From the NCBI GenBank assembly GCA_034432775.1, contig DAOUBH010000022.1, positions 27,170-91,169 on the forward strand: DNA of 64,000 nt. Reading direction: 5' to 3'. The translations under genes and the position numbers were made by a program. Positions 4,796 to 25,465 of the stretch are shown here, in pieces. Each line of letters opens with the position of its first letter. The stretch's first letter is position 1. The notes under the pieces were generated by a model. That model ran no database searches, was not told the origin of the DNA, and worked only from the letters and a program-made list of their open reading frames with translations. This DNA is from Chloroflexota bacterium (GTDB lineage Bacteria; Chloroflexota; Chloroflexia; DAOUBH01).

Positions 4796-4837
4796 CCAAC
4801 TCGCTCAAGGTAGGCTGCGGATGAGCCCAAGGCCCGC

Positions 4838-6175: not shown

Positions 6176-6359
6176 CGGCCTACATTCCGGTATGGGTGTA
6201 CTAATTATCCAGCAGGATTATAATTCTTCAAAACCACGGGAGCAGCAAGAAGACGGAGCTTAATCAGTCTATCCCACCATGGAAGTCCGCATCGCGTCAG
6301 TTCTGCTGCTGAAACAGCCCTTAGAGCCACCCGCTGCAGCAGACAAGGTAAGCTGACCG

Positions 6360-7343
6360 TCAAGGGGTTCGTTTGCGTCGGGCCTCTGGATTTACACAAT
6401 GAGGCGGCATCTCTCCCCGAAGGCCTGCCTTTAGGTTTTCCACCGCCAGCATAGCCATCTTCAGACGCGTACCCCGACTAGCACTCCCTATATGGGGCAG
6501 CACCACCACGTTCGGAAGTCTGAGAAGGGGATCGTCGGGAGCAATAGGCTCGGGGTCCGTTACATCTAGCCCAGCGCCTCCGAGGCGGCCAGTCGCCAAG
6601 GCGTTGTAGAGGGCCTTGTGATCTACTACGGGTCCACGAGAGGTGTTCACCAGAATGGCAGTAGGCTTCATGAGGGCCAGCTCTCTTTCGCCGATCATGT
6701 GCCGTGTCTCGTCGGTCAACGGAACATGCAGGCTGACGAAATCTGCTTCTCGGAGCAAATCATCCAGCGGAGCGAAACTGACCCCGAGTTCCCTCTCTGC
6801 GTCCAGCTTTCGCGACCTGCTGAAGTAAACTATCCTCATGTCGAAGCCCTTAGCCCGCCTAGCCACCTCATACCCGATACGTCCCAGGCCAATTATGCCC
6901 AAGGTCGCATGGTGCACATCGCTCCCGAGAAAAAGGTTAGGCAACCACGTTTTCCAAAGCCCCTGCCTAACGTAATCGGCGGCTTCCACCAACCTACGGG
7001 CGACGGCCAGCATCAAGGCGAAGGCTAGATCGGCTGTGGTGTCTGTAAGCACTCCCGGTGTATTCCCGACGTAGATTCCCTTGGATGTGGCCGCAGCGAC
7101 ATCGATGTTGTCGTAGCCAACCGCCATGTTGCTGATAACCCGAAGCTTGGGGGCAGCGTCCATCACCTCAGAATCGATGCGATCGGTGAGAAGCGAGAGG
7201 ATGCCCTCAGCATCGCGAACCTTAGCCAGCAACACCTCCCGAGGAGCGGGTAGCTCGTCAGGCCAGACCTCGACACCTTCCACGGCAGCCAGAGCGTCCA
7301 TGGCGGCCTGAGGTAGCGGTCGACATATAAAGACTCGGGCCAA
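6360..7343 (-). CDS. D-isomer-specific 2-hydroxyacid dehydrogenase (glyoxylate/hydroxypyruvate reductase-like)
   Basis: NAD-binding GIIGLGRIGYEVARR; catalytic region NTSRGPVVD...LDVTDPEP...LPHIGSAS. Confidence 0.8.
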   Translation of the reverse strand: MARVFICRPLPQAAMDALAAVEGVEVWPDELPAPREVLLAKVRDAEGILSLLTDRIDSEVMDAAPKLRVISNMAVGYDNIDVAAATSKGIYVGNTPGVLTDTTADLAFALMLAVARRLVEAADYVRQGLWKTWLPNLFLGSDVHHATLGIIGLGRIGYEVARRAKGFDMRIVYFSRSRKLDAERELGVSFAPLDDLLREADFVSLHVPLTDETRHMIGERELALMKPTAILVNTSRGPVVDHKALYNALATGRLGGAGLDVTDPEPIAPDDPLLRLPNVVVLPHIGSASRGTRLKMAMLAVENLKAGLRGEMPPHCVNPEARRKRTP

Positions 7344-7345
7344 GG

Positions 7346-10023
<2,678 letters not shown>

Positions 10024-10031
10024 TTCGGCCG

Positions 10032-11612
10032 CTACTCGGGCCCAGCCGGCCGATCGATGAGGGAGGCGCAGGTCATCTCCGGGGCTGGGGGCAGAGCCAG
10101 CAACTCCAGAACAGTCAAAGTAACATCACAAAGCCGCCGAAGGGGAGGTCTCAAACGCACCTTCCGATAGGGGCTGTCCTCCGGGGCGACAAGTATAGCA
10201 GGAGCCGGGTTCATAGAGTGGGCAGTGTGAGGACCACCTGTCAGGGGATCTATCATCTGTTCGGCGTTTCCGTGGTCAGCGGTAACTACCAGTATCCCGC
10301 CCAGAGCCAGCGTGGCATCTACCACTCGACCAACGCCCTGATCCACAGCTTCGGCAGCCCTTTTAGCAGCTTCTATTACTCCTGTGTGGCCCACCATGTC
10401 ACAGTTGGCATAGTTTATGACGACGAAGTCGTACTTGCCCGAACGGATCCTCTCCACGGCCACATCGGTCACCTCGGGAGCGCTCATCTCTGGCTTCAAA
10501 TCGTAAGTGGCCACCTTGGGAGACGGAACTAACAGCCGGTCCTCTCCCGGGAAGGGCGTCTCGTAACCGCAGTTCAAGAAATACGTCACATGGGCATATT
10601 TCTCTGTCTCGGCCACGTGGAACTGGGTGAGCCCATGGTCGCTTATGATCTTTGCCAATGGGTTCTTTACCTCCAAAGATCTGAAGGCCACCAGAACGGG
10701 CAAACCCTCTTCGTACTCGGTCATCGTTACGAATAGTAGGTCCTCAAGAGGCTTCCCGCGATCGAACTCGTGGAAATCGGGCAGAACGAAGGCTTTCGTC
10801 AACTGCCTGGCCCTGTCAGCCCTGAAATTGAAATGTACCACCGCATCGCCGTCTCTCACCTGGCCTACAGGTTTCCCCGATGCGTCCAGAATGACACAGG
10901 GCACTATGAACTCGTCGGTAGTTCCTTCGCGATAAGAACGGATTATGGCCTCCTCCGCGCTCGGGGCGGTGCGACCCACACCATGAACTATAGCATCGTA
11001 AGCAAGCTTCACCCGGTCCCAACGCTTATCGCGGTCCATGGCATAGTACCGGCCAGACACCGACGCAATCCGACCTACATCGATTCTCGCCGTAGCTTCT
11101 TCCAGCTCCTTTACGAAGCCAAGGCCAGAATCCGGCGGCGTATCCCGCCCATCGGTAAAGGCATGCACGAATACCTTTCGGAGGCCAAACCTCGCCGCCA
11201 TATCGAGCAGTGCAAACAAATGACGGGAATGGCTGTGTACCCCGCCGTTGCCGATCAGGCCCATGAAGTGCAGCGCGGATTCCCTGGTACGCGCATGCTC
11301 CATGGCCTTGACCAACGCCTCGTTGGAATAGATAGTCCCGTCTTCAACAGCCCTATCTATCAGAGTGAGGTCCTGATACACGATGAAGCCGGCTCCGAGG
11401 TTCATGTGGCCGACCTCGGAATTGCCCATCTGTCCTTTGGGCAAGCCAACGGCTTCCTCGCAGGTCTTCAGCTCCGTACGAGGATACGAGGCCCAGAGGC
11501 GATCGAAATTGGGCGTGTTGGCCAGATAAATGGCATTTCCGGGCCCTGGGGCCGCCAGCCCCCAGCCATCAAGTACGACCAGCACTACCGGCCTATGTAA
11601 CCTTGCCTCCAT
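10032..11612 (-). CDS. gpmI: 2,3-bisphosphoglycerate-independent phosphoglycerate mutase
   Basis: VVLVVLDGWGL, MGNSEVGHMNLGAG, HGVGRTAPSAEEAI; 526 aa. Confidence 0.95.
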   Translation of the reverse strand: MEARLHRPVVLVVLDGWGLAAPGPGNAIYLANTPNFDRLWASYPRTELKTCEEAVGLPKGQMGNSEVGHMNLGAGFIVYQDLTLIDRAVEDGTIYSNEALVKAMEHARTRESALHFMGLIGNGGVHSHSRHLFALLDMAARFGLRKVFVHAFTDGRDTPPDSGLGFVKELEEATARIDVGRIASVSGRYYAMDRDKRWDRVKLAYDAIVHGVGRTAPSAEEAIIRSYREGTTDEFIVPCVILDASGKPVGQVRDGDAVVHFNFRADRARQLTKAFVLPDFHEFDRGKPLEDLLFVTMTEYEEGLPVLVAFRSLEVKNPLAKIISDHGLTQFHVAETEKYAHVTYFLNCGYETPFPGEDRLLVPSPKVATYDLKPEMSAPEVTDVAVERIRSGKYDFVVINYANCDMVGHTGVIEAAKRAAEAVDQGVGRVVDATLALGGILVVTADHGNAEQMIDPLTGGPHTAHSMNPAPAILVAPEDSPYRKVRLRPPLRRLCDVTLTVLELLALPPAPEMTCASLIDRPAGPE

Positions 11613-12298
11613 TCTTCGACCTCTCCTCGAAAACCCAGCCGTGCATTATACCCCACACTCACGAGAAGCCCGCCCAGCTGCCCGTGCGAATTTGGCCAGA
11701 ACCTTTGTGCAGCCGAGGCGAGCATACCTCCGGTAATACCTAGCAGAGCAAGAAGGGACAGCATTGAATCTTCCTGCTTGGGGAGATAAAACTAAACGCA
11801 AGGCTCAGTGTATGCCCCAGCCCACGTTCAAGTTCGGCCGTGCAGGCTAGAGCGACTAGCATTTTTTTCTCCAGTGGGTCCCACCCTCGGGCCTCATCGG
11901 CTGCGAGAATACCTTAAAAAATTCTAGGACGTGGCCTATCTTCCCCCAGCTAACAACTATCGTATCGGTATGTAGTTCCGCAGAATCTGAGCTCTTGGCG
12001 CGCGTACGCCCGTGTACGATTGAAGGGCAGTGCCTACTGCCAGACAAGTCAAGCACTGTCAGGGACCTGCACAGTTAACACGAGGGCAGGAAGACGAAAA
12101 CCGATGGACGTATAGGGTTCGCGGTACGGGCAGCCTCCGAGCTTCGAATGATACCTTTAACCCGTTATATACATTGGTATATTGCCGTTAAATTCTGACG
12201 CAATCTTAAAAGATGCTACGCATAATGAAACAAGTAGGCTTTTGCACTTTCAACTCTGGTACAAAGACTTATCATGCCACAGGCGGGAGTGGCGGAGC

Positions 12299-15061
12299 AT
12301 GTCCGTGGTGTTTAAACCGGAAGTGAAGTGGGTACCAAGTTACTGTTATCAATGCAACGCGGGCGGACCAGATCTATTGCGCGTTAAGGTAGTAGACGGG
12401 GTAGCAGTAGGACTAGAGGGCAACCTTGATTTTGCTAGTGTCCATCCAGGCGGGGCAAAAGTGTGCGTCAAAGCATATGGGCTAATTCAGAAACATTATA
12501 ACCCAAATCGCGTCAAGGCCCCGCTGAAACGCACGAATCCTAAAAAGGGTCTGGACGAGGACCCTGGTTTCGTAGAGATCACATGGGATGAAGCCATCGA
12601 ACTGTGGGCCCAGAAACTCCTTGAGGTCAGGAGTCGAGGCATAGTAGACGAGAACGGTTATCCACGTGTCGCCTTCGCTGAGGGGTCTGATGGTGTTTGC
12701 CCTTCGTATTATGGCACCCTGCCAGTGATTTTCGGTGGCCTCTCACAGGCTCTAGGGCTCCCTCCCGGGATCTGGGGACCTACCGAATTTACCATGGCGC
12801 AAGGGGGCGGCGTGAAGTGTTACCACACCGAGCATCTGCTTGGGGAGCTGTGGCACAAAGGCTTCACGTGTGCTCAAGATACCCCACTCTGTGATTACAT
12901 CATTGCCATTGGCAGAAGTGACGACACGTCCTTCGGCGTCACGGGAGCGAAGCGCCAGGCTGAGGCCAGAGCCAGGGGATGGAAAAGGGTCCAAGTAGAG
13001 CCACACCTATCGGTAACCGGAGCTACATCTGACCGATGGGTCCCCATAAGGCCCGAGACCGATCATGCATTTCTTTTCGCTATGATCCATGTTGTCCTTC
13101 ACGAAATGAATTGGGCTGAAGTGTGTGACATCCACTTCTTGAAAACGATGACCAATAGCTCCTATCTGGTTGCGCCCGATGGCTACTTTCTGCGAGACCC
13201 GGTGTCCGAAAAGCCGCTAGTGTGGGACACCGTGGACCGAGCCGCCAAACCCTTCGATAGGGACGTGAAGGATCCCGCACTTGAAGGTGAATACGAGGTC
13301 GCCGGGATCACCCTTGGCCCAGACTCCAAAAGAAGCAGATTCGACCGCGTTTCGGTCAAGCCAGCCTTTCAACTGCTCATAGAACACGTGAAGACGTACA
13401 CGCCGGAGTGGGCATCAGAGATCTGCGATGTTCCTCCGCAAACCATTAGGGAACTGACGCATGAGTTCATTAGCCATGCAAGAGTAGGAGCAACCATCAC
13501 CGTCGACGGCATTGAAATGCCCTATAGGCCAGTGTTCATTGCCCTCGGCAAGACCCAGAATAACGGATGGGGCTCCATGCAGTGCGTCTGGGCAGCCCAC
13601 GTTTTGCAAATGCTCGTCGGCTCGTTGGAAGTACCTGGGGGACACTTAGGGACCCGGGTTCTGTTCTCAGGCCCGCCCAGAAGAACAGCTGATGGATTTC
13701 TCGAGTATCCCTTCAACCCGACAGACAAGGAGAACTGGCGGTTTCCTCCTGGCCGTAGGGATGGTGTGCCATCCCTCTGTCCACTGACAGGACCTTTTCT
13801 GGGCCCCATGCATCTGGGGTGGAAATGGACCGTGGACCCACCTCCACACTGGCCGGCTCCGAGCGTACCCGACATATTGATCACCTACAAGGTGAACCCG
13901 GTCATCTCGCAGTTCGATACACCAACTATCGTGGAGGTACTTCGCAGGATCCCCTTCCATGTGGCGTTTGCCTATACCCTGGACGAAACAGCTTGGTTCG
14001 CGGATCTCGTGCTACCAGAAGATGGAGACCTGGAAGCACTGCAGGTTTTCCCCATCGGCGCTACAACCTTTATGGAGAACTTTTGGGAGCATGTCGGACT
14101 CGCCATAAAGCAGCCTGCAGTACCACGGGCGAATAACACGCGGAACATTACCGACATAGCGACCGACTTGGCGGAAAAACTAGGAATGCTGGCTGCCTAC
14201 AACGAGGCCCTAAACCACGGCGCCTTCCTTGGATTTGTCTTGAAGGATACCCCGCACGAATTACAGCCAGACAAGAAATACACAGCGGAAGAGATCTATG
14301 ACCGAATCTGTAAGGTAGCTACTTACAACCTCAGTAGGGGATCGGAGGAATTCGGATTGGAGTGGTTTAAGGAAAAGGGAGCCTTCTTCGTTCCTTTCCC
14401 CAAGGTCGGTCCAGGGATAAGCCTGGGCCCGATTTACATGCGTCCATGGTACCTTTACCCCTACATGCGCCAGTCTGGCATCCGCTTCGAGCTCCCCTAC
14501 CAGGAAAGGTTGAAGAGGATCGGTGAAGAGCTTCAAGCACGCATCAGCGAGGCCAAGATAGACTGGTGGCAGGCACAGGCACACGAATACCAGGCATTGC
14601 CGAAATGGCACAGTACCAGCACAATCATCGACGATGTTATTGCCAAACGTTACGGGAAAAACCCAAATGACTACCCATTTTGGCTTCTTGCTACCCGAAG
14701 CATGCAATATGCTTGGGGATCCAACATAGCAGTTCCGCAGATGCATGAAGTAGCCGAGCGCGTGTTGGGTCACACGTGGGTTCAGATGAGCACCCAAGCG
14801 GGCAGGCTTCTCGGAATTAAGGATGGGGACGAAGTGTGGATTGAGTCTGCATATGGCAAGGCGCGAGGGAGAGTTAAGCTGAGGGAGGGAATCCGAGCAG
14901 ATGTTGTGTTGACAACGCAGATGTATGGCCACGTGAAAACCCCGTTCGCTAAGGATCTCAGACTCCCAAACCTCAATCAGATAGCTCCAGCGCTAGTGGA
15001 GTTAACCGACGAAACTGGGGGTTCTAAGGATCATGTCAAAGTGAAGGTATATAAGCCCTAA
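12299..15061 (+). CDS. molybdopterin oxidoreductase catalytic subunit (DMSO reductase/MopB superfamily), no Tat signal
   Basis: ~920 aa; N-terminal C-x2-C-x3-G-x33-C (YCYQCNAGG...KVCVKAYG) at the position of the MopB FS0 cluster motif; no RRxFLK motif; ATG 12299 after GGGAG; long ORF from 12182 is likely upstream extension. Confidence 0.8.
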   Translation: MSVVFKPEVKWVPSYCYQCNAGGPDLLRVKVVDGVAVGLEGNLDFASVHPGGAKVCVKAYGLIQKHYNPNRVKAPLKRTNPKKGLDEDPGFVEITWDEAIELWAQKLLEVRSRGIVDENGYPRVAFAEGSDGVCPSYYGTLPVIFGGLSQALGLPPGIWGPTEFTMAQGGGVKCYHTEHLLGELWHKGFTCAQDTPLCDYIIAIGRSDDTSFGVTGAKRQAEARARGWKRVQVEPHLSVTGATSDRWVPIRPETDHAFLFAMIHVVLHEMNWAEVCDIHFLKTMTNSSYLVAPDGYFLRDPVSEKPLVWDTVDRAAKPFDRDVKDPALEGEYEVAGITLGPDSKRSRFDRVSVKPAFQLLIEHVKTYTPEWASEICDVPPQTIRELTHEFISHARVGATITVDGIEMPYRPVFIALGKTQNNGWGSMQCVWAAHVLQMLVGSLEVPGGHLGTRVLFSGPPRRTADGFLEYPFNPTDKENWRFPPGRRDGVPSLCPLTGPFLGPMHLGWKWTVDPPPHWPAPSVPDILITYKVNPVISQFDTPTIVEVLRRIPFHVAFAYTLDETAWFADLVLPEDGDLEALQVFPIGATTFMENFWEHVGLAIKQPAVPRANNTRNITDIATDLAEKLGMLAAYNEALNHGAFLGFVLKDTPHELQPDKKYTAEEIYDRICKVATYNLSRGSEEFGLEWFKEKGAFFVPFPKVGPGISLGPIYMRPWYLYPYMRQSGIRFELPYQERLKRIGEELQARISEAKIDWWQAQAHEYQALPKWHSTSTIIDDVIAKRYGKNPNDYPFWLLATRSMQYAWGSNIAVPQMHEVAERVLGHTWVQMSTQAGRLLGIKDGDEVWIESAYGKARGRVKLREGIRADVVLTTQMYGHVKTPFAKDLRLPNLNQIAPALVELTDETGGSKDHVKVKVYKP

Positions 15062-15082
15062 GACAAGGGGAGGGTACTTGCC

Positions 15083-15733
15083 GTGGCACGATGGGGAATG
15101 GCCATCGACCTCAGGAAATGCAACGGATGTCAGACGTGCACCGTAGCATGCAAGATCGAGAATTTCACCCCAAAGGGTTTGCTTTGGGGACAAGTTTACG
15201 ATTATGAGACCGGGCAGTATCCCACAGTCCAACGCCGCTTCCTTCCCGCCCTTTGTATGCACTGTGAAAGTCCGCCATGCAGAGACGTGTGCCCGACAGG
15301 CGCCACCAAAAAGAGAGAAGACGGAATCGTTTATGTCGATTATCAGAGGTGTACCGGTTGCCAGGCATGTGCCTTAGCCTGTCCGTACGAAGCGCGCTTC
15401 CTCTACACGGAACGGGATGGGTATTTTGACCGACGCAGAACCCCATACGAACAGTTCCCATACGAGTGGAGAGCACCATCGCAACGGTTTACGAACGGAA
15501 CCATGACGAAATGTACCTTCTGTATGCACCGGATAGATCAACACCCAAATAAGCGTCCAGGTATAGATCCGGAGGCCACACCTGCCTGCGTCGTTGCCTG
15601 TATCACCGGAGCACGGATCTTCGGTGATCTGGACGACTCAGAGAGCGAGATCAACAAGGTAATCCGGGAACGACGCGGCTTCACACTGCTGCCTGAGCTC
15701 GGGACTGGGCCTTCCGTGTATTACTTGCCCTAA
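15083..15733 (+). CDS. 4Fe-4S ferredoxin-type electron-transfer subunit of molybdopterin oxidoreductase
   Basis: Four Cys clusters: CNGCQTCTVACK, CMHCESPPCRDVCP, CTGCQACALACP, CTFCMH...CVVAC; GTG start 9 nt after GGAGG. Confidence 0.85.
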   Translation: MARWGMAIDLRKCNGCQTCTVACKIENFTPKGLLWGQVYDYETGQYPTVQRRFLPALCMHCESPPCRDVCPTGATKKREDGIVYVDYQRCTGCQACALACPYEARFLYTERDGYFDRRRTPYEQFPYEWRAPSQRFTNGTMTKCTFCMHRIDQHPNKRPGIDPEATPACVVACITGARIFGDLDDSESEINKVIRERRGFTLLPELGTGPSVYYLP

Positions 15734-15753
15734 AAGCGAAGCTCTAATAGGGT

Positions 15754-16605
15754 GTGTGGGAGGTAAAGGCAGTGATTTCCATCCATGGTCAGAGAAACTG
15801 GGGTTTCACGACAGCTCTGGCAATGTTCCTCGAGGGGAGCTGTGGCGCCACTACGGTAAGCGGAATACTTCTAGGCAATCTACCCATGGTAATACTTGGG
15901 GTAGCCCTCGGAATGGCAGCCGGCTTGATCCTTTTACTTGAGCTCGGAAATCCGAAAAATGCAATCTGGTTACTTGCAGGCATACGTCATGCTTGGATTT
16001 CGCGAGGTACTCTCCTACTACTGTTAGTCATTGTTTTTGGCCTTGCATACGCTCTCGTCGGCCTGCCAACTGTGGGCGCCCCGCCCGTCTTAAGCGTAGT
16101 CGCGGGTGTCACCGCTGGAATCGCAGGCCTCTTGCTGACACTGTACCCAGGGTTCCTGCTCGCTTCGTTCAAGCCCATACCGTTGTGGCATTCGGCCTTG
16201 TCGCCCATTCTCTCTTTCGGCATTAGCGCCCTAGGCGGTTTCGGCGTAACTTTGGTCATGTCCCCACTGGTAACTGTAAATGCAGTACAGATGACGATTC
16301 CTGCAGTGTCAGGTGCAGTGGTCTTTCAAGCCGTGGCGTGGTGGGCATTTATCGACACAGCGCTAAAAGGTAGCGTTACAGAATCCCACGGAGCTAGGGT
16401 GCTATTGGGGCTACCTGTCTTCTCAGCTGGGGCCATCGCGGTTGGCTTGGCATTACCTGGAGTAATCATGGTTTTAGCGTGGGCCGCAGGCGTTACATCA
16501 CTTCCGTTGTATGTCGTAGCAGGGGTATGTCTGCTTGCTGGAAGTCTAAGCGCTAGGTACGCCCTATTAAGGGCTGGTGTGCGATTGCGGTGGCAGCCGG
16601 CCTAG
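15754..16605 (+). CDS. integral membrane anchor subunit (NrfD/PsrC/DmsC-like) of molybdopterin oxidoreductase
   Basis: 283-aa protein with ~8 hydrophobic helices directly downstream of the catalytic and FeS subunits. Confidence 0.6.
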   Translation: MWEVKAVISIHGQRNWGFTTALAMFLEGSCGATTVSGILLGNLPMVILGVALGMAAGLILLLELGNPKNAIWLLAGIRHAWISRGTLLLLLVIVFGLAYALVGLPTVGAPPVLSVVAGVTAGIAGLLLTLYPGFLLASFKPIPLWHSALSPILSFGISALGGFGVTLVMSPLVTVNAVQMTIPAVSGAVVFQAVAWWAFIDTALKGSVTESHGARVLLGLPVFSAGAIAVGLALPGVIMVLAWAAGVTSLPLYVVAGVCLLAGSLSARYALLRAGVRLRWQPA

Positions 16606-17299
16606 CCTGGAACCGAAGGCAGCCTCAGCCTCCATTCTGCCGCGGGACACGCGAATGAGGCCAGGACTGTCCCGGGAGTTATATGGAAGCTAACGGAGGA
16701 TATCCGAGCAAATCCCCAGATCCATCAAACTAATAGATCATTAACCGGTGAGGCAAAGGGGTTCTTGCATCAGCCGGGCGCTCAGAATGGGGAGCCAGCA
16801 CCCTACTTGGCTCTGGTGCGGCTACTGATTGGTCTGAGGGGGTCTGACAGGTAGAGTATACCCTCTTCTACCCCCATCACATATCCTTCTTGCTGCTCAA
16901 TGGCCGATCTCCCCATAAACCAAGTACCGTAATCATGCATCACATCGAGACCATACCAGCCACGCCACGAGGTATCGCGATAGAGCCAAAGCCTAGGTAG
17001 CCGTCGATACACATCGGGGGAGGACTTTCCACGGGTTCTAATACGGACTCCGGTTGCTAAGGGTGAAACGGCTCACGGAGGGAGAGCCTCAGGCCAAGGC
17101 CATCCACACCAGTAGTGCAGATAGGGGTGCAGTTCACCAACCGTCGCTCAGCTCCTTCAAAGCAAGTTAAGGCGTCTCCATCGTCCTTGGCCCCGACATT
17201 GGGGCTCGAACTGAAAGGGATTGACCTCCATGATACAATCTACTGTGGAGTTCGACCCATACCTTTTCGCTAAAAACCCCAAGTCTAGGTAGATGGACT

Positions 17300-18082
17300 G
17301 TGTTGACCCACGCCTTTATCCAGATCCGCGGCCTCACTAAGGTCTATTTGTCAGACCACGGACAAGTGCTCGCCCTCGACGGCATAGACCTGGACATAGC
17401 AGAGAAGGAGTTCGCTTCCATCCTGGGACCCAGCGGCTGCGGCAAGAGCACCCTCATTATGCTCATAGCAGGCCTCATACGCCCCACATCGGGAAGCATA
17501 ACCATAAACGGCAGACAGATCGATGGTCCATACACTGATCTGGGGATAGTCTTTCAGCGGGACGTTCTCCTGGACTGGCGAAATGTACTGGACAACGTAT
17601 TGCTCCAGATCGAGATCCGCAGGCTGAAACGATCCGATTATGAGAAAGTTGCCCTTCAGCTCCTCGACAGGGTCGGTCTGGGCGAATTCACTACAGCCTA
17701 TCCCAGGGCCCTGTCGGGAGGCATGCGCCAACGGGTAGCCATCTGCAGGGCCCTTGTCCACGACCCGCCTCTCCTGCTTATGGATGAGCCCTTTGGAGCC
17801 CTCGACGCCCTCACTAGAGACCAGATGTCCCTAGATCTTATGCGCATCTGGGAACAGACCCATAAGACGGTACTCTTTGTGACCCACAGCATACCCGAGG
17901 CTATCTTCCTTTCCGACAGGATTATCGTCATGTCGCCGCGTCCAGGCCGCATCGTAGAAGACATCCGCATCGAGCTGCCCAAGCCGCGACGCTTGGCCGT
18001 GCGCGATACCCAGGACTTCGCCGACTATGATCGCCACATCCGGGAGATCTTCATGGCCCAGGGTGTGCTGGTCGAAGGATAG
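17300..18082 (+). CDS. ABC transporter ATP-binding protein (NitT/TauT family)
   Basis: Walker A GPSGCGKST, signature LSGGMRQR, Walker B LLLMDEPFGALD, H-loop VTHS. Confidence 0.85.
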   Translation: MLTHAFIQIRGLTKVYLSDHGQVLALDGIDLDIAEKEFASILGPSGCGKSTLIMLIAGLIRPTSGSITINGRQIDGPYTDLGIVFQRDVLLDWRNVLDNVLLQIEIRRLKRSDYEKVALQLLDRVGLGEFTTAYPRALSGGMRQRVAICRALVHDPPLLLMDEPFGALDALTRDQMSLDLMRIWEQTHKTVLFVTHSIPEAIFLSDRIIVMSPRPGRIVEDIRIELPKPRRLAVRDTQDFADYDRHIREIFMAQGVLVEG

Positions 18083-18102
18083 ACGTTTGGCAGGAGGAAT
18101 GT

Positions 18103-18930
18103 ATGGCTGAAGGTGTCACAGCTGTTAAGGTCGAGCAGAAACCACGGCCTCGCGCAAACCTTAAGGACTACTACTATCCCGTGGCAGCTGCGATCGCGTT
18201 CCTTCTCTTGTGGGAGGGAATTGTCCACCTGCTGAATATCAAGCCCTACCTGCTGCCAGCACCGTCAAACATCCTTCAAAAGCTGACCGGCCAGTGGGGA
18301 ACCATCTGGGACTACACGCTCGTCACCGGATTCGAGGTGTTGCTAGGCTTCCTGCTGAGCATAATCGTGGGCATACCGTTGGGCATGGTCATATTCTATG
18401 TAAAGGCCCTGGAGAGGGTTATCTATCCCTTTCTAGTGGCATCTCAGACTATCCCCAAGGTAGCCATCGCACCACTTTTGGTGATCTGGTTCGGTTTCGG
18501 TCTTACGCCCAAGGTGATCGTGGCCTTCTTGATAGCCTTCTTCCCCATAGTGGTCGATACTGTGGTAGGGCTGAAAAGCACCCCTCCAGAGATGATCTAT
18601 CTAGTAAGATCCATGGGAGCCAACAGGCTCCAGACCTTCCTGAAGATCAGTTTGCCCAATGCCCTCCCCAATATATTCGGCGGCTTGAAGGTCGCCATCA
18701 CTTTGGCGGTAGTGGGTGCTGTGGTGGGAGAGTTCATAGGTGCCGATAGGGGCCTCGGTTACCTCCTTGTGGTCGCCAACGGCTACCTCGATACCCCCCT
18801 GGTCTTCGCTGGGATCATTGTCCTCAGCCTCATGGGCATATTTCTCTTCTTCGTCATTGAGATCATCGAACGCCTCCTAATGCCTTGGAGATCCGAAGAG
18901 CAGACGGAGATAGTCAGGGGGACCATGTGA
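18103..18930 (+). CDS. ABC transporter permease (NitT/TauT family)
   Basis: Polytopic membrane protein; EAA-like region RSMGANRLQTFLKISLPNALP. Confidence 0.85.
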   Translation: MAEGVTAVKVEQKPRPRANLKDYYYPVAAAIAFLLLWEGIVHLLNIKPYLLPAPSNILQKLTGQWGTIWDYTLVTGFEVLLGFLLSIIVGIPLGMVIFYVKALERVIYPFLVASQTIPKVAIAPLLVIWFGFGLTPKVIVAFLIAFFPIVVDTVVGLKSTPPEMIYLVRSMGANRLQTFLKISLPNALPNIFGGLKVAITLAVVGAVVGEFIGADRGLGYLLVVANGYLDTPLVFAGIIVLSLMGIFLFFVIEIIERLLMPWRSEEQTEIVRGTM

Positions 18931-20321
18931 GGCAGAAACACCAGCAGGAAGCAGATCTGCTCGTCCTGGGGGAATGGATCCTCCTGTCAGCAAACGATGC
19001 CCTACAACGGGGAGCCATAGCGGTACGGGACGGCCTTATAGTCGATGTTGGTCCCCAACGAGATGTTATGGAACGGTACCGCGCCAAGAGGGTCATCGGC
19101 GGCGCCGATAGGATCGTTGCTCCCGGGCTAATAAATACCCATACCCATCTCTTTCAGACCTTCCTCCGCGGATTGGGCGAAGGGCTGCCATTGCGCACCT
19201 GGGTCGAGCGAGTAACTACCCCTGCTGCCCTTGCCATGACCTGGGAAGACGCCTACCTGTCGGCTGCCCTGGGCCTCATCGAGGCCCTTCACTCCGGAAC
19301 TACGGCTGTCTTCGAGTATGGGTACGCCTTTCCAGATCCATCCCTGCACGAGGCCACCTTGAAAGCTTTCCTCGATGTGGGAGTGCGTGGCTGGTTGGGG
19401 ATAGGTGTCAACGATGCTGGGATTGAGTTCGGCGTCCATCCGGCATTCATTCAGACCGTCGATGAGGCTCTGAAGAAGGTGGACGATTTGCGTGTCGCGA
19501 TGGCCAGGCTTGGCCAGATGCCGGTCCAGTTAGCCCTCGTCTCGGGAAGCATCAGAGGCCTATCTTCCCAGGGCGTCAGGGCCTTCCATGGGTACGCAGA
19601 GGCCAACGGTCTACTCTATTCCCTCCACCTCAAAGAGATACCCCAGGACGACGAAACAGCCCTGCTGCGTTTCGGTACCAGGGCAGTGCCGTGGCTCGCT
19701 GATTGCGGGGTCCTCAAGCCTAATCTCCTCGCTGTCCACTGCGTGTGGCTCAACCAGGAGGACATAGACCTCCTGGCTGAGGGCCGCTCCTCTGTGTCCC
19801 ACAACCCCGTCAGCAACATGTATCTAGGTGCGGGGATAGCTCCAGTGGCAGAGTTGCTGCAACGTGGGATCGCAGTAGGCTTAGGCACCGACGGGCCAGC
19901 AAGCAACAACAGCATGGACATGCTCCAGACGCTGAAGTTCTCCATACTGGGACAGCGAGCCCGAAAGGCCTCGCCCGATATCATAACCTCGAGGGACGGC
20001 TTCCGCATGGCTACGGAGGACGCTGCCCGGGCCTTGGGGGTCGAGGGTCTTCTTGGACGCATCGCTCCTGGATATGTGGCCGATATTGTTGTTTTCCGCA
20101 CCGATACCTTCCAGGGAGTCCCTTGCCATGACCCCTACGCTACGTTAGCCTTCTCAGCCGGTTGTGGCTCCGTAGAGACCGTGATGGTCGGAGGGCGGAT
20201 CGTTCTAGAGGAGGGTCTGGTCAAGACCCTCGATGAAGCCGACATCGTGGCTAGGGCATCGACAGCAGCCAAGGATCTGGTCCAGCGAGCAGGCATACCC
20301 GCAGGAGTGTTCGTGAGGTGA
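18927..20321 (+). CDS. metal-dependent amidohydrolase (cytosine/guanine deaminase or chlorohydrolase-like)
   Basis: APGLINTHTHL metal-binding HxH, later HCVW and GLGTDGPASNN; GTG start overlaps permease stop (GTGA). Confidence 0.75.
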   Translation: MRQKHQQEADLLVLGEWILLSANDALQRGAIAVRDGLIVDVGPQRDVMERYRAKRVIGGADRIVAPGLINTHTHLFQTFLRGLGEGLPLRTWVERVTTPAALAMTWEDAYLSAALGLIEALHSGTTAVFEYGYAFPDPSLHEATLKAFLDVGVRGWLGIGVNDAGIEFGVHPAFIQTVDEALKKVDDLRVAMARLGQMPVQLALVSGSIRGLSSQGVRAFHGYAEANGLLYSLHLKEIPQDDETALLRFGTRAVPWLADCGVLKPNLLAVHCVWLNQEDIDLLAEGRSSVSHNPVSNMYLGAGIAPVAELLQRGIAVGLGTDGPASNNSMDMLQTLKFSILGQRARKASPDIITSRDGFRMATEDAARALGVEGLLGRIAPGYVADIVVFRTDTFQGVPCHDPYATLAFSAGCGSVETVMVGGRIVLEEGLVKTLDEADIVARASTAAKDLVQRAGIPAGVFVR

Positions 20322-21345
20322 TCTCGGGCATCACCATGAATCCCGATGCCGATCCCCAGGTGTTGAAAGCCATAGCCCGACAGGTGGAGGAGCTCGGATT
20401 CTCCTACTGCTACGTTGCCGACCAAGGCCTGAGTCGCGACGTATATGTGACACTGTCCAACCTGGCCGCCTCCACCACAAGCCTACGGTTGGGCCCTGGA
20501 ATCACTCACCCCTATGTGCGGCACCCGGCCGCCACAGCCGTGGCCATAGCGACCCTAGATGAGCTATCCCACCACAGGGCCTTCCTGGGCATAGGAGCCG
20601 GTGGCACCCGCGCCCTCGCCCCCTCAACATCGACAGAAGAGAGCCACTCCGCGCCTGCACCGAGGCAGTGGAAATTGCGCGACGGCTCTGGACCGGCCAA
20701 CCCGTAGACTTTTCCGGCCGCTACTTTCAGCTTAGAGGCGCCCGCATCAACTTTCCTTGCCGGCACAATATAGAGGTACACTGGGCTGCCCGGGGTCCCA
20801 AGATGCTACGCCTGGGCGGTGAACTGGCTGATGTAGTTTTCCTCCATGGAAACCCCCACAGCGAGATAGCTGAAGCTGTGCGCCATGTTCGGGCGGGAGC
20901 CCTTGAGGCCCAACGGAAAGTGAGGATTCACCTGGCACTGCCAATAATCTATGATCAGGCCTCCTTCGAGAGCGGACGCTTAAGGACAGCTTGCAGGTTG
21001 GTCGATCTCACTGAGGATGCCAGGAGGAGGCTGGACATATCCACACAGCTCCATTCCAGGATCAGGGAGCTGGTGCTATCGTCGCAGCTCGAGTCCGCTG
21101 CACAGCTTGTGGAGCCTGAACTGGTCAGGCAATTTGTAGTCGACGCCACAGACCCGGAGTCGCTTCGCGATCTGGCCAGGACCATAGCTTCTCTCAACTT
21201 GGACGGCTTTATAGTGGAGATCAGTAACCCGTACCTGGCTGCAACTATACTTCCCGTGGCCCATCAGGTCATCGCCAAGACCATGCAGCTGCTCAAGGAC
21301 CAAACTACTGGTAGTCCACAAACCTATCAGGGAGGTGTCCCATGA
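20318..21345 (+). pseudogene. F420-dependent LLM-class (luciferase-like/Mer-like) oxidoreductase, reading frame broken by apparent -1 frameshift in a C5 run (20619-20623)
   Basis: N-terminal frame ...LGPGITHPYVRHPAATAVAIATLDELSHHRAFLGIGAGG (Mer-like); C-terminal part continues in another frame as PLNIDRREPLRACTEAVEIARRLWTGQPVDFSG...; one extra C would restore GAGGTRALAPLNIDRREPL. Confidence 0.6.
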
Positions 21346-22424
21346 GGCGTTTCAGAGGCTTACGGTGGTATCAGATCCTCACACTACTCGTGCTAGGGCT
21401 CTTTCTAGTTGCCTGCAGCCAGCCAACACCGGCACCCCCGGCCGGAGCCCAGGCAAGCCCAGCGCCCAGCCCAGCACAGCCTACCCCGACAGCCAAGCCG
21501 GCACCCGACAAGGTCACCCTCAGGCTCTCATGGCGGTGGAAGGCCGAGTTTGCACCCCTGGTCCTTGCTGACGACAAAGGCTTCTTCAAGGAAGAGAACA
21601 TTGAAGTGCAGCTCCTCGAAGGCAAGGGGTCTGGTGATGTAGTCCCCCTCATAGCCAACAAGACCGACACCTTCGGCTACCTTAATCTCACCACGGTGGC
21701 GATAAGCACAGCTAAAGGTCTACCCGTAAAGGTTGTGGCCGGTCTTATGGCTAAGAACCCTTCAGCTCTGGCCTTCTTCGCTGAGAAGAACATAAAGCAA
21801 CCCAAAGACCTAGAGGGCAAATCCATTGCCCTGACACCGGGTGAGGCCTTCGCCGTCATTTGGCCAGCTTTCGCTAAGAAATGGGATATCGATACCTCCA
21901 AAGTCACCACCGTCAACCTCGACCCCAGCGTTAAGAATCAGGCGTTCCTGGAAGGACGCATCGATGTACTTCCTGTCTATGTGAACAACGAGCTGCCTCA
22001 GATCCGCTACCAGGCCAAGAAGCCCATCGACATCCTCACGCCAGCCGATTGGGGCTTCAACACCATAGCCAACGGGATCATCACCCACGTGGACACCATC
22101 AAAGAAAAACCCGACCTGGTACGCAGGTTCGTCCGCGCCGTAGCTAAGGGTTACAAGTACGCAATCGACCATCCAGACGAGGCAGTAGCCGCCGTGTCCA
22201 AGCGGTCAGATGCCCTTGCCAGCCAGCCGAAGGAGGTGCTCCTCGAACAGGTCACAATGACCTTGGACTTTATGTACAGTCCCAACAACAAGGGCAAGCC
22301 CATCGGATGGATGGCCGATGAAGACTGGACCGCTACCATCGACCAACTCTTCCAGACCGGCGCCATCGATAAAAAGCTTCCCAACGACACCTTCTACACG
22401 AACGATTTCGTACCCAAGGAGTGA
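21342..22424 (+). CDS. ABC transporter substrate-binding lipoprotein (NMT1/THI5/SsuA-like)
   Basis: Signal peptide with lipobox LFLVAC-S, Pro/Ala-rich linker, periplasmic binding protein body; start overlaps LLM stop. Confidence 0.8.
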   Translation: MRRFRGLRWYQILTLLVLGLFLVACSQPTPAPPAGAQASPAPSPAQPTPTAKPAPDKVTLRLSWRWKAEFAPLVLADDKGFFKEENIEVQLLEGKGSGDVVPLIANKTDTFGYLNLTTVAISTAKGLPVKVVAGLMAKNPSALAFFAEKNIKQPKDLEGKSIALTPGEAFAVIWPAFAKKWDIDTSKVTTVNLDPSVKNQAFLEGRIDVLPVYVNNELPQIRYQAKKPIDILTPADWGFNTIANGIITHVDTIKEKPDLVRRFVRAVAKGYKYAIDHPDEAVAAVSKRSDALASQPKEVLLEQVTMTLDFMYSPNNKGKPIGWMADEDWTATIDQLFQTGAIDKKLPNDTFYTNDFVPKE

Positions 22425-22439
22425 ACTAACTAGAGGCCA

Positions 22440-22826
22440 GTGGAAAAGAGGTTCGTTAATCCAGCCGAACTGCATGCTCCCTTGGGAGCTGGCTGCCACG
22501 TAGCTGTGGCCGGCAGGACCATCTACGTGGCAGCCCAGCTTCCCTTGGACAAAGACGGTAACCTCGTCGGGCCCGGCGACCCTGTGGCTCAGGCCGAGCA
22601 GGTGTTCCGAAATCTGCAAGCAGCCCTTCGGGCCGTGGATGCCAACCTGGGGGATGTCGTCAAACTCACAACATATCTGAGAGACCTGGAGCATCGCCCC
22701 TTGGTCATGGAAGTACGTAATAGGTTCTTCGGTAGCCACCGCGCCCCGAGCACCCTGGCCCTGGTCGTAGACCTCCCGGTGCCGGGGGCTCTCCTCCAGA
22801 TCGACGCTATAGCCGTGAAGGACTGA
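22440..22826 (+). CDS. RidA/YjgF/Rid-family protein (paralog 1)
   Basis: 128 aa; RidA core (...IYVAAQLPLDKDGNLVGPGDPVAQAEQVFRNL...LLQIDAIAV). Confidence 0.85.
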   Translation: MEKRFVNPAELHAPLGAGCHVAVAGRTIYVAAQLPLDKDGNLVGPGDPVAQAEQVFRNLQAALRAVDANLGDVVKLTTYLRDLEHRPLVMEVRNRFFGSHRAPSTLALVVDLPVPGALLQIDAIAVKD

Positions 22827-22828
22827 TC

Positions 22829-23227
22829 ATGTGGGCCCGTAAAACTATTTCGCCCCCACAGAACCCGAGGCCCACCAGTTACTACTCCCATGGAGTCCTT
22901 GCAGGTCCGTGCCTCTATACTGCTGGCCAGACCTCCAGGGACCCCCACGGAAACCTTGTGGGGTCGGACAGCATAACTCTTCAGGCTGCCCAAGCTCTCC
23001 GCAACCTGAACAACGTACTGAACGAAGCAGGCATGACACCTTCCGACATCGTGTTCCTTCGTGTGTTCCTCAGGCGAGCCGAAGACTTTGAGGCTGTTTC
23101 GCAGGCCCTGAGGGCCTTCTTGGGCAGCCACACCCCTGCTATCACCGTAGCCATCGTAGAAGGGTTAGCATACCCCGAATACCTTCTGGAGATAGAGGCC
23201 ATAGCCGCAGCAGGGGACCCGCCATGA
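22829..23227 (+). CDS. RidA/YjgF/Rid-family protein (paralog 2)
   Basis: 132 aa; ...LYTAGQTSRDPHGNLVGSDSITLQAAQALRNL...LLEIEAIA. Confidence 0.85.
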   Translation: MWARKTISPPQNPRPTSYYSHGVLAGPCLYTAGQTSRDPHGNLVGSDSITLQAAQALRNLNNVLNEAGMTPSDIVFLRVFLRRAEDFEAVSQALRAFLGSHTPAITVAIVEGLAYPEYLLEIEAIAAAGDPP

Positions 23228-23607
23228 AGCAGCGGATCTCAGTACCGTCCATACATCGACCGACCACCTATTACTCTCATGCCATCGTAGTAGACGGGTG
23301 GGTGTACACGGCCGGCCAGGCTCCGCACCGTCCCGACGGAAGTGTCTGGGAGCCATCGGACCCTGAGGGCCAAATTCGCCAGGTATGGGAGAACATGCGC
23401 GAAGTCCTCGAGGCCGCTGGCTCGAATCCTGAGAATATCCTTCGCCTCGTCGTGCTGCTCAAGGACAGGGACCTCGTGCCTCTCTTCTGGAAAGTCTCCA
23501 GCGATTACTTGGGGACTTGCCGCCCGGCTACATCGCTGGCCGTGGTGAAGGGTATGGCCGATACCCGCTATCTAATAGAGATGGAGGCCATTGCGCTGTG
23601 CCGCTGA
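23224..23607 (+). CDS. RidA/YjgF/Rid-family protein (paralog 3)
   Basis: 127 aa; ...VYTAGQAPHRPDGSVWEPSDPEGQIRQVWENM...LIEMEAIA; ATGA overlap with paralog 2. Confidence 0.85.
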   Translation: MKQRISVPSIHRPTTYYSHAIVVDGWVYTAGQAPHRPDGSVWEPSDPEGQIRQVWENMREVLEAAGSNPENILRLVVLLKDRDLVPLFWKVSSDYLGTCRPATSLAVVKGMADTRYLIEMEAIALCR

Positions 23608-23622
23608 GCTTCCCAGCTCAGC
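23603..23622 (+). terminator. candidate stem-loop (gctgagc-ttccca-gctcagc) at convergent gene junction
   Basis: Perfect 7-bp inverted repeat overlapping the RidA-3 stop; weak T-tract only. Confidence 0.25.
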
Positions 23623-23702
23623 TCTTCGCACATCGCTATAAGGCTTACCCAGATCGCCGAGTGAACACAACTACGCACGGGGGAGCAGCACTGTTCTCCT
23701 CG

Positions 23703-25453: not shown

Positions 25454-25465
25454 GGCCAGCCCACT

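Follow-up and report, generated by a model that had tools for sequence, protein, structure and literature searches.

The molybdoenzyme cassette and its neighbours

The window, i.e. the whole 64-kb stretch of DNA analysed here, carries a cassette predicted to be a self-contained three-gene operon of the complex iron-sulfur molybdoenzyme (CISM) class (DMSO reductase superfamily). The first gene (12299-15061, plus strand) encodes a catalytic molybdopterin subunit of 920 aa, identical to database entry P0001, in which Pfam identified the Molybdopterin (PF00384, 45.4 bits) and Molydop_binding (PF01568, 36.9 bits) domains, both exceeding their gathering scores. It is followed on the same strand by a gene for a four-cluster ferredoxin-type electron-transfer subunit of 216 aa (15083-15733; Pfam PF13247, Fer4_11), with 16 Cys residues placed in cluster motifs and with TtrB/DsrO/ArrB-like NCBIfam matches, every one below the cut-off. 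The third gene (15754-16605, plus strand) encodes a polytopic membrane anchor of 283 aa, strongly hydrophobic throughout. Pfam and NCBIfam scans of this protein gave no match, and it is described as NrfD/PsrC-like through its homology to relatives: it is 42% identical to the corresponding subunit at locus L082 (see below), which is annotated as PF03916 (NrfD). In gene order, the calculated masses of the catalytic, FeS and membrane subunits are 103, 24.7 and 29 kDa.

The N-terminus of the catalytic subunit, MSVVFKPEVKWVPSYCYQC, contains neither the RR motif nor the hydrophobic h-region of a Tat signal; a comparison of N-termini revealed a Tat motif in the homologues P0005 and P0011. With the orientation suggested by the missing Tat motif, the predicted enzyme would be membrane-anchored and cytoplasm-facing. 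A four-Cys FS0 motif was not found, as the first 70 residues contain just Cys16, Cys19 and Cys56, and the same comparison indicated that this three-Cys pattern is common across the cassette's family. Many homologues of the catalytic subunit at 50-73% identity bear the JGI name phenylacetyl-CoA:acceptor oxidoreductase. The cassette appears to belong to this JGI-labelled PadBCD-like sequence family, where the label consists of the automatic names of homologues and the substrate is a presumed one.

On the left lies gpmI (10032-11612, minus strand), encoding 2,3-bisphosphoglycerate-independent phosphoglycerate mutase (Pfam iPGM_N and Metalloenzyme), and on the right an ABC-operon block (17300-23607, plus strand), in which Pfam identified an ABC ATPase, a permease, an amidohydrolase, a (split) luciferase-like monooxygenase, an NMT1 binding protein and three RidA proteins. 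The cassette is separated from gpmI by a divergent non-coding spacer of 686 bp (11613-12298, GC 0.520) and from the ABC operon by a co-directional one of 694 bp (16606-17299). These gaps are bordered by the end of the minus-strand gpmI ORF at 11612, the catalytic ATG at 12299, the membrane-subunit stop at 16605 and the ABC ATPase start at 17300, and the earlier description of non-coding flanks of ~690 bp on each side in tightly packed surroundings proved correct. They are the longest gene-free gaps of the window, in which the median gap is 13 bp and the next largest measure 629, 491 and 481 bp. Two seemingly larger gaps were rejected, since 57168-58270 is occupied by CheD/CheC-like ORFs and 22440-23227 by two RidA genes. 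In an independent Logan assembly, the right flank is covered over 694/694 bp with 100% identity.

Composition of the cassette and content of its flanks

All composition statistics refer to the 64-kb window with its 56 genes, not to the genome as a whole. The first-pass annotation regarded the cassette as compositionally atypical on the basis of spot counts, which were recovered upon re-counting (28/60 G+C at 12301-12360 and 40/60 at 9301-9360), and at the scale of the window this view holds. The GC content of the cassette is 0.541, compared with 0.572 for the rest of the window. When every 4.3-kb segment of the 64 kb is compared, none is poorer in GC than the cassette (0.540, versus 0.572±0.008 and a minimum of 0.551 elsewhere) and none has a greater tetranucleotide distance (0.2005, versus 0.140±0.0145 and a maximum of 0.175 elsewhere); together with its codon usage, this makes it the most deviant stretch of this length. 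The GC3 values of the three genes are 0.594, 0.585 and 0.532, compared with 0.645±0.040 for the 56 genes, and their amino-acid-conditioned z-scores of synonymous-codon likelihood (-4.73, -2.50 and -6.27) are the three lowest of all 56, the membrane subunit having both the lowest GC3 and the lowest codon score in the window. The amplitude of the shift is modest, about 3 GC points, and the dinucleotide delta* of the cassette is not extreme (16% of the segments are equally extreme).

The flanks had been suggested to hold regulatory elements or decayed genes, but none were detected by Rfam, folding, Pfam/NCBIfam, tBLASTn or HMMER analyses. The covariance-model scan of both flanks gave no Rfam family at gathering score, neither a Moco riboswitch nor any other known cis-regulatory RNA, and raising E up to 5 added two chance-level matches (P36 and ZNRD1-AS1). 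Fold z-scores were at background (mean 0.02, minimum -2.5 versus a background minimum of -3.6). Pfam and NCBIfam searches with the flank ORFs and with six-frame translations of both flanks revealed no family, no integrase and no transposase, and tBLASTn of the flanks against the loci of related cassettes matched no neighbour gene and no pseudogene trace. On a codon-score scale where real genes have 0.169±0.088, compared with -0.094±0.131 for shadow ORFs, the best ORF of the right flank (16803-17012, minus strand, 69 aa) has an ambiguous score of 0.067, and the ORF at 11585-11764 (minus strand) in the left flank an intermediate one, likewise 0.067. An exhaustive HMMER search with the 69-aa ORF against 1.84 billion representatives yielded two marginal matches to repeat-rich giant proteins, none of them credible, and none of the left-flank ORFs has family or homologue support.

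A consensus scan of the left flank indicated a weak terminator-like hairpin with a T-run (11846-11870, plus strand) of doubtful significance; such sites are not enriched, as seven were found in the region and 5.5±2.4 are expected by shuffling. A sigma-70-like promoter candidate, CTGAAA-17-TACAAT with TG (17211-17239, plus strand), precedes the start of the ABC ATPase by ~60 bp. It is the sole promoter-like match in 11400-17500, where shuffling predicts 3.5±2.0, and is weak evidence for a promoter. The sequence upstream of the cassette start codon is not conserved among four cassettes. In agreement with the first-pass inspection, which had noticed no repeat or integrase by eye, comparison of the flanks with each other for direct repeats returned only chance-level 15-17-mers, there is no inverted repeat pairing them, and neither flank contains an IS6 remnant, terminal inverted repeats or a tRNA gene (the sole tRNA of the window is at 56012-56088). 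Both flanks look like plain spacer DNA.

Synteny and the history of the cassette

The nearest relatives are L169 and L170 (GCA_900175145.1 and GCA_900175155.1, respectively), and L171 is a third relative. Comparison of gene order placed gpmI directly beside the ABC operon in L169 and L170 (ABC_tran, a gap of ~1.0-1.1 kb, gpmI), and the cassette is absent from the site. A single contig of the sister genome (L170, with the ABC-operon block corresponding to 8874-2609) matches window positions 1310-11656 and 17313-26131 collinearly, and 11657-17312 has no counterpart there. The anchors on both sides are conserved, gpmI with 84% identity to that of the sister genome and the proteins of the ABC-operon block with 52-91%. 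Collinearity breaks exactly at both flanks, and the left flank resembles the relatives only in ~44 bp beside gpmI (11613-11656). In L171, gpmI adjoins aroA and the ABC-RidA block is absent. Since the housekeeping blocks on its two sides adjoin directly in the closest relatives, the position of the cassette is not conserved. The uninterrupted gpmI-ABC spacer of the sister is ~1.1 kb of non-coding DNA with a GC of 0.64, in which neither a convincing ORF nor an Rfam match was found. As this spacer is already so long without the cassette, the length of the flanks is no sign of an insertion.

In the sister assembly GCA_900175155.1, the cassette lies on a different contig (L082), where it is flanked by ECF/QueT genes and by ValRS and a tRNA-Thr gene is 270 bp away. 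The catalytic subunit encoded there is the nearest homologue of the window protein among 5.8 billion proteins (77% identity), and compared with 17 other homologues the two form a clade with an NJ bootstrap of 100/100. Six concatenated core proteins of the window and the sister are 77.8% identical. Because the nearest copy is that of the sister and its divergence equals that of the core, presence of the cassette in the common ancestor fits better than a recent foreign import. The FeS and membrane subunits are less similar to their sister copies (66% and 42%, respectively), below the core median. Copies from Chloroflexota that are clearly different (P0002-P0006) also share 69-74% identity with the catalytic subunit, whereas the identity of gpmI and ValRS drops to about 60-63% outside the trio, so the cassette was exchanged laterally among Chloroflexota at some depth.

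The sister cassette is offset from its host in a similar way (GC3 0.65-0.70 versus 0.753±0.028), and therefore the deficit may be intrinsic to the cassette genes and not a remnant of foreign origin. In the window and the sister alike, the GC3 of the cassette moved in parallel with that of the host; in L083, the deficit is large (0.45-0.57 versus 0.62-0.70). The mild AT-shift and atypical codons are probably a lasting trait of the cassette genes, reflecting low expression or an old, incompletely ameliorated ancestry.

The context of the cassette family differs in every genome examined (L082, L083/84, L085, L086, L172 and L174). The identical P0002 cassette is found in two contexts, accompanied by non-coding DNA, ~0.5-0.6 kb on its upstream side and at least 0.66 kb on its downstream side, and 180-480 bp upstream of it there is an IS6-family transposase fragment (L083-L085; 45-55 residues, far under the model cut-off). 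Gene-poor upstream regions also lie beside related cassettes (596 bp in L082, about 740 bp in L085 and 600 bp in L174). Some of these loci contain accessory genes that the window cassette does not have, namely a NarJ/TorD-like chaperone and a ferredoxin in L172, and a sensor regulator, a ferredoxin and an SDR in L086.

The first-pass annotation had proposed horizontal acquisition. Its recent form, in which a lower-GC donor contributed the cassette to the gpmI-ABC spacer after the sister split and the sister gained its own copy at tRNA-Thr, accounts for the fact that the cassette is compositionally the most deviant part of the 64 kb, and for its absence from the syntenic site in relatives. The changing contexts of the family, the two settings of the P0002 cassette with its non-coding DNA and upstream IS6-family fragment, the large GC3 deficit in L083 and the closeness of the sister copy to a tRNA gene, the kind of site where islands classically lie, point the same way, and the past lateral exchange among Chloroflexota would be compatible with a transfer between the lineage of the window organism and that of the sister. 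However, two independent imports would need two donors mimicking the divergence of the hosts, as the two copies are mutually closest at core divergence, the GC3 of the cassette tracks that of the host in both genomes, and the window site has no integrase, transposase remnant, att-like repeat or tRNA. We therefore regard a recent acquisition as unlikely. The original proposal is partly supported: the deviant composition and the non-conserved synteny stand, and the nearest copy in the sister at core-level identity (77%), the similar deficit there, the long spacer without a cassette and the empty flanks weaken it. It is highly improbable, on the other hand, that the locus has no real feature and merely combines normal composition variation with two ordinary long intergenic regions around an operon. 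The small amplitude and unremarkable delta* would agree with this, as would the 1.1-kb spacer at the sister junction and the nature of the left flank, a divergent promoter region, a type that is usually longer. Yet the three genes with the most deviant codons among the 56 are adjacent (the chance for a random adjacent triple, estimated from the ranks, is about 0.002), the cassette is the extreme segment for both GC and tetranucleotides, and the exact coincidence of the synteny break with the flanks refutes the idea that nothing happened here.

Distinctly unlikely, and already largely disfavoured, are flanks that are functional or formerly coding, i.e. decayed accessory, regulator or mobility genes, or an undescribed cis-regulatory element or small RNA. 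The accessory genes of L172 and L086, the recurrence of long gene-poor upstream regions in L082, L085 and L174 and the intermediate codon scores of ORFs 11585-11764 and 16803-17012 would fit such remnants, but the six-frame, tBLASTn and HMMER searches, the Rfam and folding results and the lack of upstream conservation among the four cassettes all argue against them.

We consider it most plausible, with a probability of about 0.65, that the cassette is a lineage-resident PadBCD-like, Tat-less operon, ancestral to the window organism and its sister, which was relocated, and that the flanks are old spacer. The cassette would already have been present in the common ancestor of the window organism and its nearest sequenced relatives, and a single relocation would separate the genomes: either the cassette was inserted at this site, or the sister clade excised it and took it up again elsewhere. 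Since the window organism is the outgroup of the three relatives, as placed against L170 and L171, and a gain here or a loss there requires one event each, the direction of the move is close to an even choice. The flanks would be the two halves of a single long non-coding spacer that evolves fast, with the presumed divergent promoters of gpmI and the cassette on the left and the putative cassette termination region and ABC operon promoter on the right; this is an argument from parsimony and not from alignment, as the flanks share just 44 bp with the sister spacer. So read, the case is one of ordinary genome rearrangement. No mechanism of cassette movement is visible.

Comparison with known systems

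A classical genomic island is marked by an integrase, a target tRNA gene and direct repeats. Like such islands, the cassette is missing from the corresponding site of close relatives and, at the scale of the window, is atypical in composition and codon use, although the sister copy is likewise offset; it differs in that the window site has no integrase, tRNA target or flanking direct repeats. It also resembles small islets or relocated operons at variable intergenic junctions: it is present or absent, depending on the genome, where two conserved blocks meet, its composition is atypical, and this junction has a further indel, namely the ABC-RidA block missing in L171. The transposase fragment near the P0002 cassette in one related lineage is reminiscent of IS6/IS26-type mobilisation, whereas the window flanks have neither the IS6 remnant nor the inverted repeats of such a system or of a composite transposon. 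A more general reading, which we regard as very unlikely, is that the PadBCD-like cassette is a recurrently mobile Chloroflexota module that moves with several hundred bp of non-coding DNA on each side, mostly without a recognised mobility gene. The P0002 flanks in two contexts, the gene-poor flanks of L082, L085 and L174 and the AT-shift in three hosts are compatible with it. If true, it would imply undescribed cis-acting ends or recombination-based capture, and the window flanks would be degenerate ends.

PadBCD phenylacetyl-CoA:acceptor oxidoreductase of Thauera/Aromatoleum (Rhee and Fuchs 1999) is cited in PMC9765128 and PMC4453571, and according to PMC4453571 the pad cluster also holds padJ (CoA ligase) and padEFGHI. 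These genes are not beside the window cassette, whose immediate neighbours are gpmI and the ABC/amidohydrolase operon. The gene order of molybdopterin, Fe-S and membrane subunits is the same in both systems. Rhee and Fuchs in 1999 reportedly found PadBCD subunits of about 93, 27 and 26 kDa, compared with 103, 24.7 and 29 kDa for the cassette, and PadBCD is a membrane-bound Mo-Fe-S enzyme, as is predicted for the cassette. The cassette has no export signal, as would be expected with a CoA-ester substrate, and related cassettes adjoin acyl-CoA dehydrogenases and CoA-ester enzymes of the BcrAD/HGD-D type. The family label is nevertheless unsafe, because the Tat signals of the close members P0005 and P0011 are incompatible with a CoA-ester substrate.

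The best NCBIfam/PDB resemblances of the catalytic subunit are to PhsA (E=8.6e-40), ArrA (6cz7, E=4.6e-27) and PsrA (2vpw, E=4.9e-18). With PsrABC, PhsABC and ArrAB the cassette shares the four-cluster FeS subunit and, in its homologues, the NrfD-type anchor. However, its scores are far under the family cut-offs (136 bits versus 694 for PhsA), its N-terminal cluster motif has three Cys residues instead of four, and the residue aligned to the Mo-ligand Cys region of PsrA is not Cys, in a part where the alignment is weak. Unlike the periplasmic enzymes of the Psr/Phs/Arr type, its catalytic subunit has no Tat signal.

Layout and composition of the cassette

The molybdoenzyme cassette (12299-16605) is an operon of three genes, for a molybdopterin catalytic subunit of 920 aa (12299-15061), a four-cluster ferredoxin subunit of 216 aa with 16 cysteines (15083-15733) and a polytopic membrane subunit of 283 aa (15754-16605). 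To its left, across a gap of 686 bp (11613-12298), lies gpmI (10032-11612, minus strand), which is preceded by eno. To its right, across a gap of 694 bp (16606-17299), the ABC ATPase gene starts at 17300 and is followed by genes for a permease, an amidohydrolase, a luciferase-like monooxygenase, an NMT1-type binding protein and RidA proteins. The first-pass annotation, made from the sequence alone, had described flanks of about 690 bp in a tightly packed region. They are indeed the longest gene-free gaps in the window, where the median gap is 13 bp; the seemingly larger gaps contain genes (CheD/CheC-like genes and two RidA genes). The ATG at 12299 is the start in the public gene call (P0001, an identical 920-aa entry). 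An upstream TTG at 12182 was dropped as a candidate start: neither the database entry nor any homologue alignment starts before the ATG, and the extension carries no Tat motif. An independent Logan assembly reproduced positions 13769-17303 of the window at 99.97% identity, which rules out misassembly of the right flank. The Logan contig (L001, SRR11582145) ends at window position 17303, exactly where the right flank ends and 4 bp into the ABC ATPase gene. An assembly-graph break or strain variation at this point was considered; we treat the end point as coincidental, given that Logan contigs are short and that this one has its other end in the middle of a gene. Exact-protein look-ups with the gpmI and ABC ATPase products of the window gave no record.

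The spot counts on which the cassette had been called AT-shifted were exact (28/60 G+C at 12301-12360 and 40/60 at 9301-9360). Our composition statistics refer to the 64 kb of the window rather than to the whole genome. The GC content is 0.541 in the cassette versus 0.572 in the rest of the window. Among all 4.3-kb windows the cassette is the extreme both in GC content, about 4 standard deviations below the others (their minimum is 0.551), and in tetranucleotide distance, about 4 standard deviations above them, and its dinucleotide delta* is unremarkable. The GC3 values of its genes are 0.59, 0.59 and 0.53, compared with 0.645±0.040 for the host genes. When synonymous-codon likelihoods were conditioned on amino-acid content, the z-scores of the three genes were the lowest of 56, a ranking that a random adjacent triple would reach with an estimated chance of about 0.002. 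The compositional difference is small and consistent. A further small peculiarity was seen in the plus-strand GC skew, which is +0.05 to +0.11 over the cassette (12001-16000) and near zero or negative over the nearby plus-strand eno gene and ABC operon.

The gpmI junction in relatives and the flanking DNA

A scan for gpmI in GTDB species genomes and JGI metagenome contigs gave best identities of 57-61%, too distant for synteny, whereas a gpmI search of 5.8 billion proteins found much closer relatives, at 84% and 81%. Two near-identical NCBI assemblies, GCA_900175145.1 and GCA_900175155.1 (gpmI loci L169 and L170), carry the order chorismate synthase, aroA, three RidA genes, NMT1, luciferase-like gene, amidohydrolase, permease, ABC ATPase, gap, gpmI, eno, SHMT, which is that of the window minus the cassette. 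DNA alignment pairs window 1310-11656 with L170 20381-9953 and window 17313-26131 with L170 8874-9, and leaves the intervening 11657-17312 without a counterpart in L170. Thus, gpmI and the ABC operon adjoin in the closest relatives, as the first-pass annotation predicted for an inserted cassette. In a third relative (L171, JGI 3300042903) aroA lies directly beside gpmI (9683-10001), and the whole block from the ABC operon to the RidA genes (window 17300-23607) is missing. Since the block is present in L170 and in the window, which is the outgroup, its absence is most simply a deletion in the lineage of L171, a second and independent indel. With the cassette difference counted as well, three relatives show two separate indels at the gpmI-aroA junction, which is therefore a small hotspot. 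The only Rfam find in the whole window, a bacterial large SRP RNA (RF01854, 195 bits; 3635-3897, minus strand), is syntenic in the sister (L170 17802-18064).

Comparison with the sister also bears on two gene calls to the right of the junction. The luciferase-like monooxygenase of the window is represented by two overlapping plus-strand ORFs, 20318-20707 (129 aa) and 20668-21345 (225 aa), and the sister has a single gene of 343 aa (L170 4841-5872) that matches the two pieces with 76% and 52%. The split is a frameshift, reflecting either a pseudogene or a sequencing error. The 180-aa ORF 22589-23131 (minus strand) is a shadow of the plus-strand RidA-family genes 22440-22826 and 22829-23227, as indicated by its GC2 > GC1 pattern and by the annotation of the sister genome.

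In L170, homology to the ABC ATPase of the window begins at 8884, which leaves an uninterrupted gpmI-ABC spacer of about 1.1 kb (966 bp by the deposited gene call), and the two window flanks combined amount to 1380 bp. The sister spacer has a GC content of 0.64, contains only GC-rich, spurious-looking ORFs and gave no Rfam match. Beyond about 44 bp adjoining the start of gpmI, no similarity between the flanks and this spacer was detectable, as expected for neutral DNA where coding DNA is only 71-77% identical. With so long a spacer in a genome that has no cassette there, the length of the flanks is not an effect of insertion. In the simplest reading, a long spacer pre-existed at the gpmI-ABC junction, with the cassette sitting within it; clean removal of the cassette from a long spacer in the sister clade would be equivalent.

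The proposal that the flanks hold regulatory elements or decayed genes found no support in any of our searches. Rfam models gave nothing credible between 11400 and 17500, even at E values up to 5. Fold z-scores in sliding 120-nt segments on both strands of the flanks had a mean of 0.02 and a minimum of -2.5, and the random window background reaches -3.6. The flanks contain ORFs of 25-69 aa in all frames, with codon scores intermediate between those of shadow ORFs and real genes. Neither these ORFs nor six-frame translations of the flanks matched Pfam or NCBIfam, and the ORFs had no match in six-frame translations of all fetched loci, among them the genes next to related cassettes and the spacer of the sister. 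An exhaustive HMMER search of 1.84 billion representatives with the best of them (16803-17012, minus strand, 69 aa) returned two marginal hits, both in repeat-rich proteins (971 and 3031 aa); we take these as compositional matches and not as credible homologues. The impression by eye that repeats are missing was borne out by a comparison of the left flank with the right one, in which no direct or inverted repeat linked them. Neither flank recurs elsewhere in the window, and blastn and tBLASTn of both against every related cassette locus, the spacer of the sister and the remaining window gave chance-level matches only, except for the 44 bp beside gpmI. No conserved motif emerged when the 260 bp preceding each of four cassettes were aligned. 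A sigma-70-like site (17211-17239, about 60 bp upstream of the ABC ATPase start) and a weak hairpin with a T-run (11846-11870) belong to classes that are not enriched over shuffles. The flanks appear empty, with nothing recognisable in them. The nearest, and only, tRNA in the window is 39 kb off. The tRNA-Ser(CGA) called by ARAGORN (56012-56088, minus strand) lies inside a 347-aa ORF (55753-56793, minus strand), so that one of the two calls is wrong: the ORF is spurious or shorter, or else the tRNA is a false positive.

Origin and mobility of the cassette

The sister GCA_900175155.1 carries its cassette on another contig (L082), between ECF-transporter/QueT genes and the ValRS gene. A frameshift near residue 170 divides its catalytic gene into two pieces (5832-6449 and 6529-8595); tBLASTn needed two frames, which overlap around residues 168-173, and in the public gene call the protein is shortened to 688 aa (P0016). 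This copy may be a pseudogene or carry an assembly error. A tRNA-Thr(CGT) gene (L082 10412-10486, minus strand) lies 270 bp downstream of the sister cassette, with no integrase nearby; a tRNA neighbourhood is a classical context of island integration. A search with the sister ValRS for the equivalent locus of the window found no match near 80%. With the two parts rejoined, the catalytic subunits of window and sister are 77% identical and are mutual nearest relatives among all homologues found (100 of 100 neighbour-joining bootstrap replicates). For six concatenated core proteins, identity is 77.8% between window and sister (L170), 77.4% between window and L171, and 83.2% between L170 and L171. 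The cassette has therefore diverged as much as the core, in line with vertical inheritance from a shared ancestor and a single later move. As the window branches outside the other two genomes, an insertion beside gpmI here and a loss beside gpmI there each require one event, and the two directions are equally parsimonious.

Horizontal acquisition, as first suggested, draws on the atypical composition and on a site that is not conserved; the nearest copy, in the sister at core divergence, speaks against a recent import, and so does the GC3 of that copy. In the sister (L082/L170) the GC3 values of the cassette genes are 0.70, 0.65 and 0.68 versus 0.753±0.028 for the host genes. This deficit of about 0.05-0.10 (relative to 27 other genes) is comparable to that of 0.05-0.11 in the window, so that the GC3 of the cassette has shifted with that of the host, by about 0.1, and has kept its offset. 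A gene-intrinsic equilibrium, e.g. low-expression codon usage, would give such a pattern, and a recent import would not; an old lateral history could also have left an incompletely ameliorated composition. In a third lineage (L083) the deficit is larger (0.50, 0.45 and 0.57 versus 0.62-0.70). An 'island' signal can persist in a lineage-old cassette, so a date drawn from composition only would have been wrong. The position of the cassette is not conserved, yet the cassette is most likely native to the lineage.

Older movement is indicated by comparison outside the trio, where gpmI and ValRS show about 60-63% identity and the catalytic subunit 69-74% to its homologues P0002-P0006, so that the cassette has moved laterally among Chloroflexota at some depth. 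For the third lineage there is direct evidence of recent mobility. The same 916-aa protein (P0002) occurs in two unrelated contexts, by FtsZ/PspC (L083/L084) and by ThiG and an ECF-S gene (L085), and homology between these loci reaches about 510-615 bp past the operon on the upstream side and at least 660 bp on the downstream side, and then breaks. In the upstream stretch common to them, a small ORF at L085 4221-4517 and L084 5486-5710 codes for a fragment that matches the C-terminal third of IS6-family transposases (NF033588, E = 2.9e-5, model positions 121-169 of 195; also NF033587, E = 0.015); the 98-aa ORF of L085 went unrecognised in Pfam before NCBIfam identified the fragment. A 19-bp inverted repeat lies near the homology break (L085, about 4082-4100 and 4493-4511). 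These other lineages hint that the cassette travels together with its non-coding flanks, and this hint and the poorly characterised enzyme family are the residual novelty. The case in the window is an ordinary rearrangement on the scale of an operon, at a variable junction and without visible mobility machinery. A respiratory-type molybdoenzyme operon is positionally mobile in an uncultured lineage of Chloroflexota while the flanking genes of glycolysis and aromatic-amino-acid synthesis stay syntenic; the value of the case lies mainly in annotation and evolutionary bookkeeping, and it opens no long-standing question.

The enzyme and its relation to known systems

By its two Pfam domains the catalytic subunit belongs to the DMSO-reductase superfamily. 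It lacks a twin-arginine signal, and the motif at its N-terminus comprises three cysteines (Y-C-Y-Q-C ... K-V-C), as in most family members. Tat signals are present in the homologues P0005 and P0011 (63-70% identity), as …TRRQFIKGAG… and …TRRTFLKGTG…. The family thus seems to include periplasmic and cytoplasmic enzymes, which undermines a uniform automatic name; many homologues are named phenylacetyl-CoA:acceptor oxidoreductase in JGI. Related cassettes have as neighbours acyl-CoA dehydrogenases, SDRs, BcrAD/HGD-D proteins or a NarJ-type chaperone. We regard this as a widespread, uncharacterised family, usually Tat-less and with the three-cysteine N-terminal motif, for which the automatic name is doubtful.

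To PhsA, QrcB, ArrA and PsrA the catalytic subunit bears only a distant resemblance. PadBCD is a membrane-bound Mo-Fe-S enzyme according to Rhee & Fuchs 1999, as cited in PMC9765128, and its genes belong to the pad cluster with padJ and padEFGHI (PMC4453571), partners that do not stand beside the cassette of the window. Rather than filing it as PadBCD, we describe the product of the cassette as a PadBCD-like, probably cytoplasm-facing quinone-coupled oxidoreductase.
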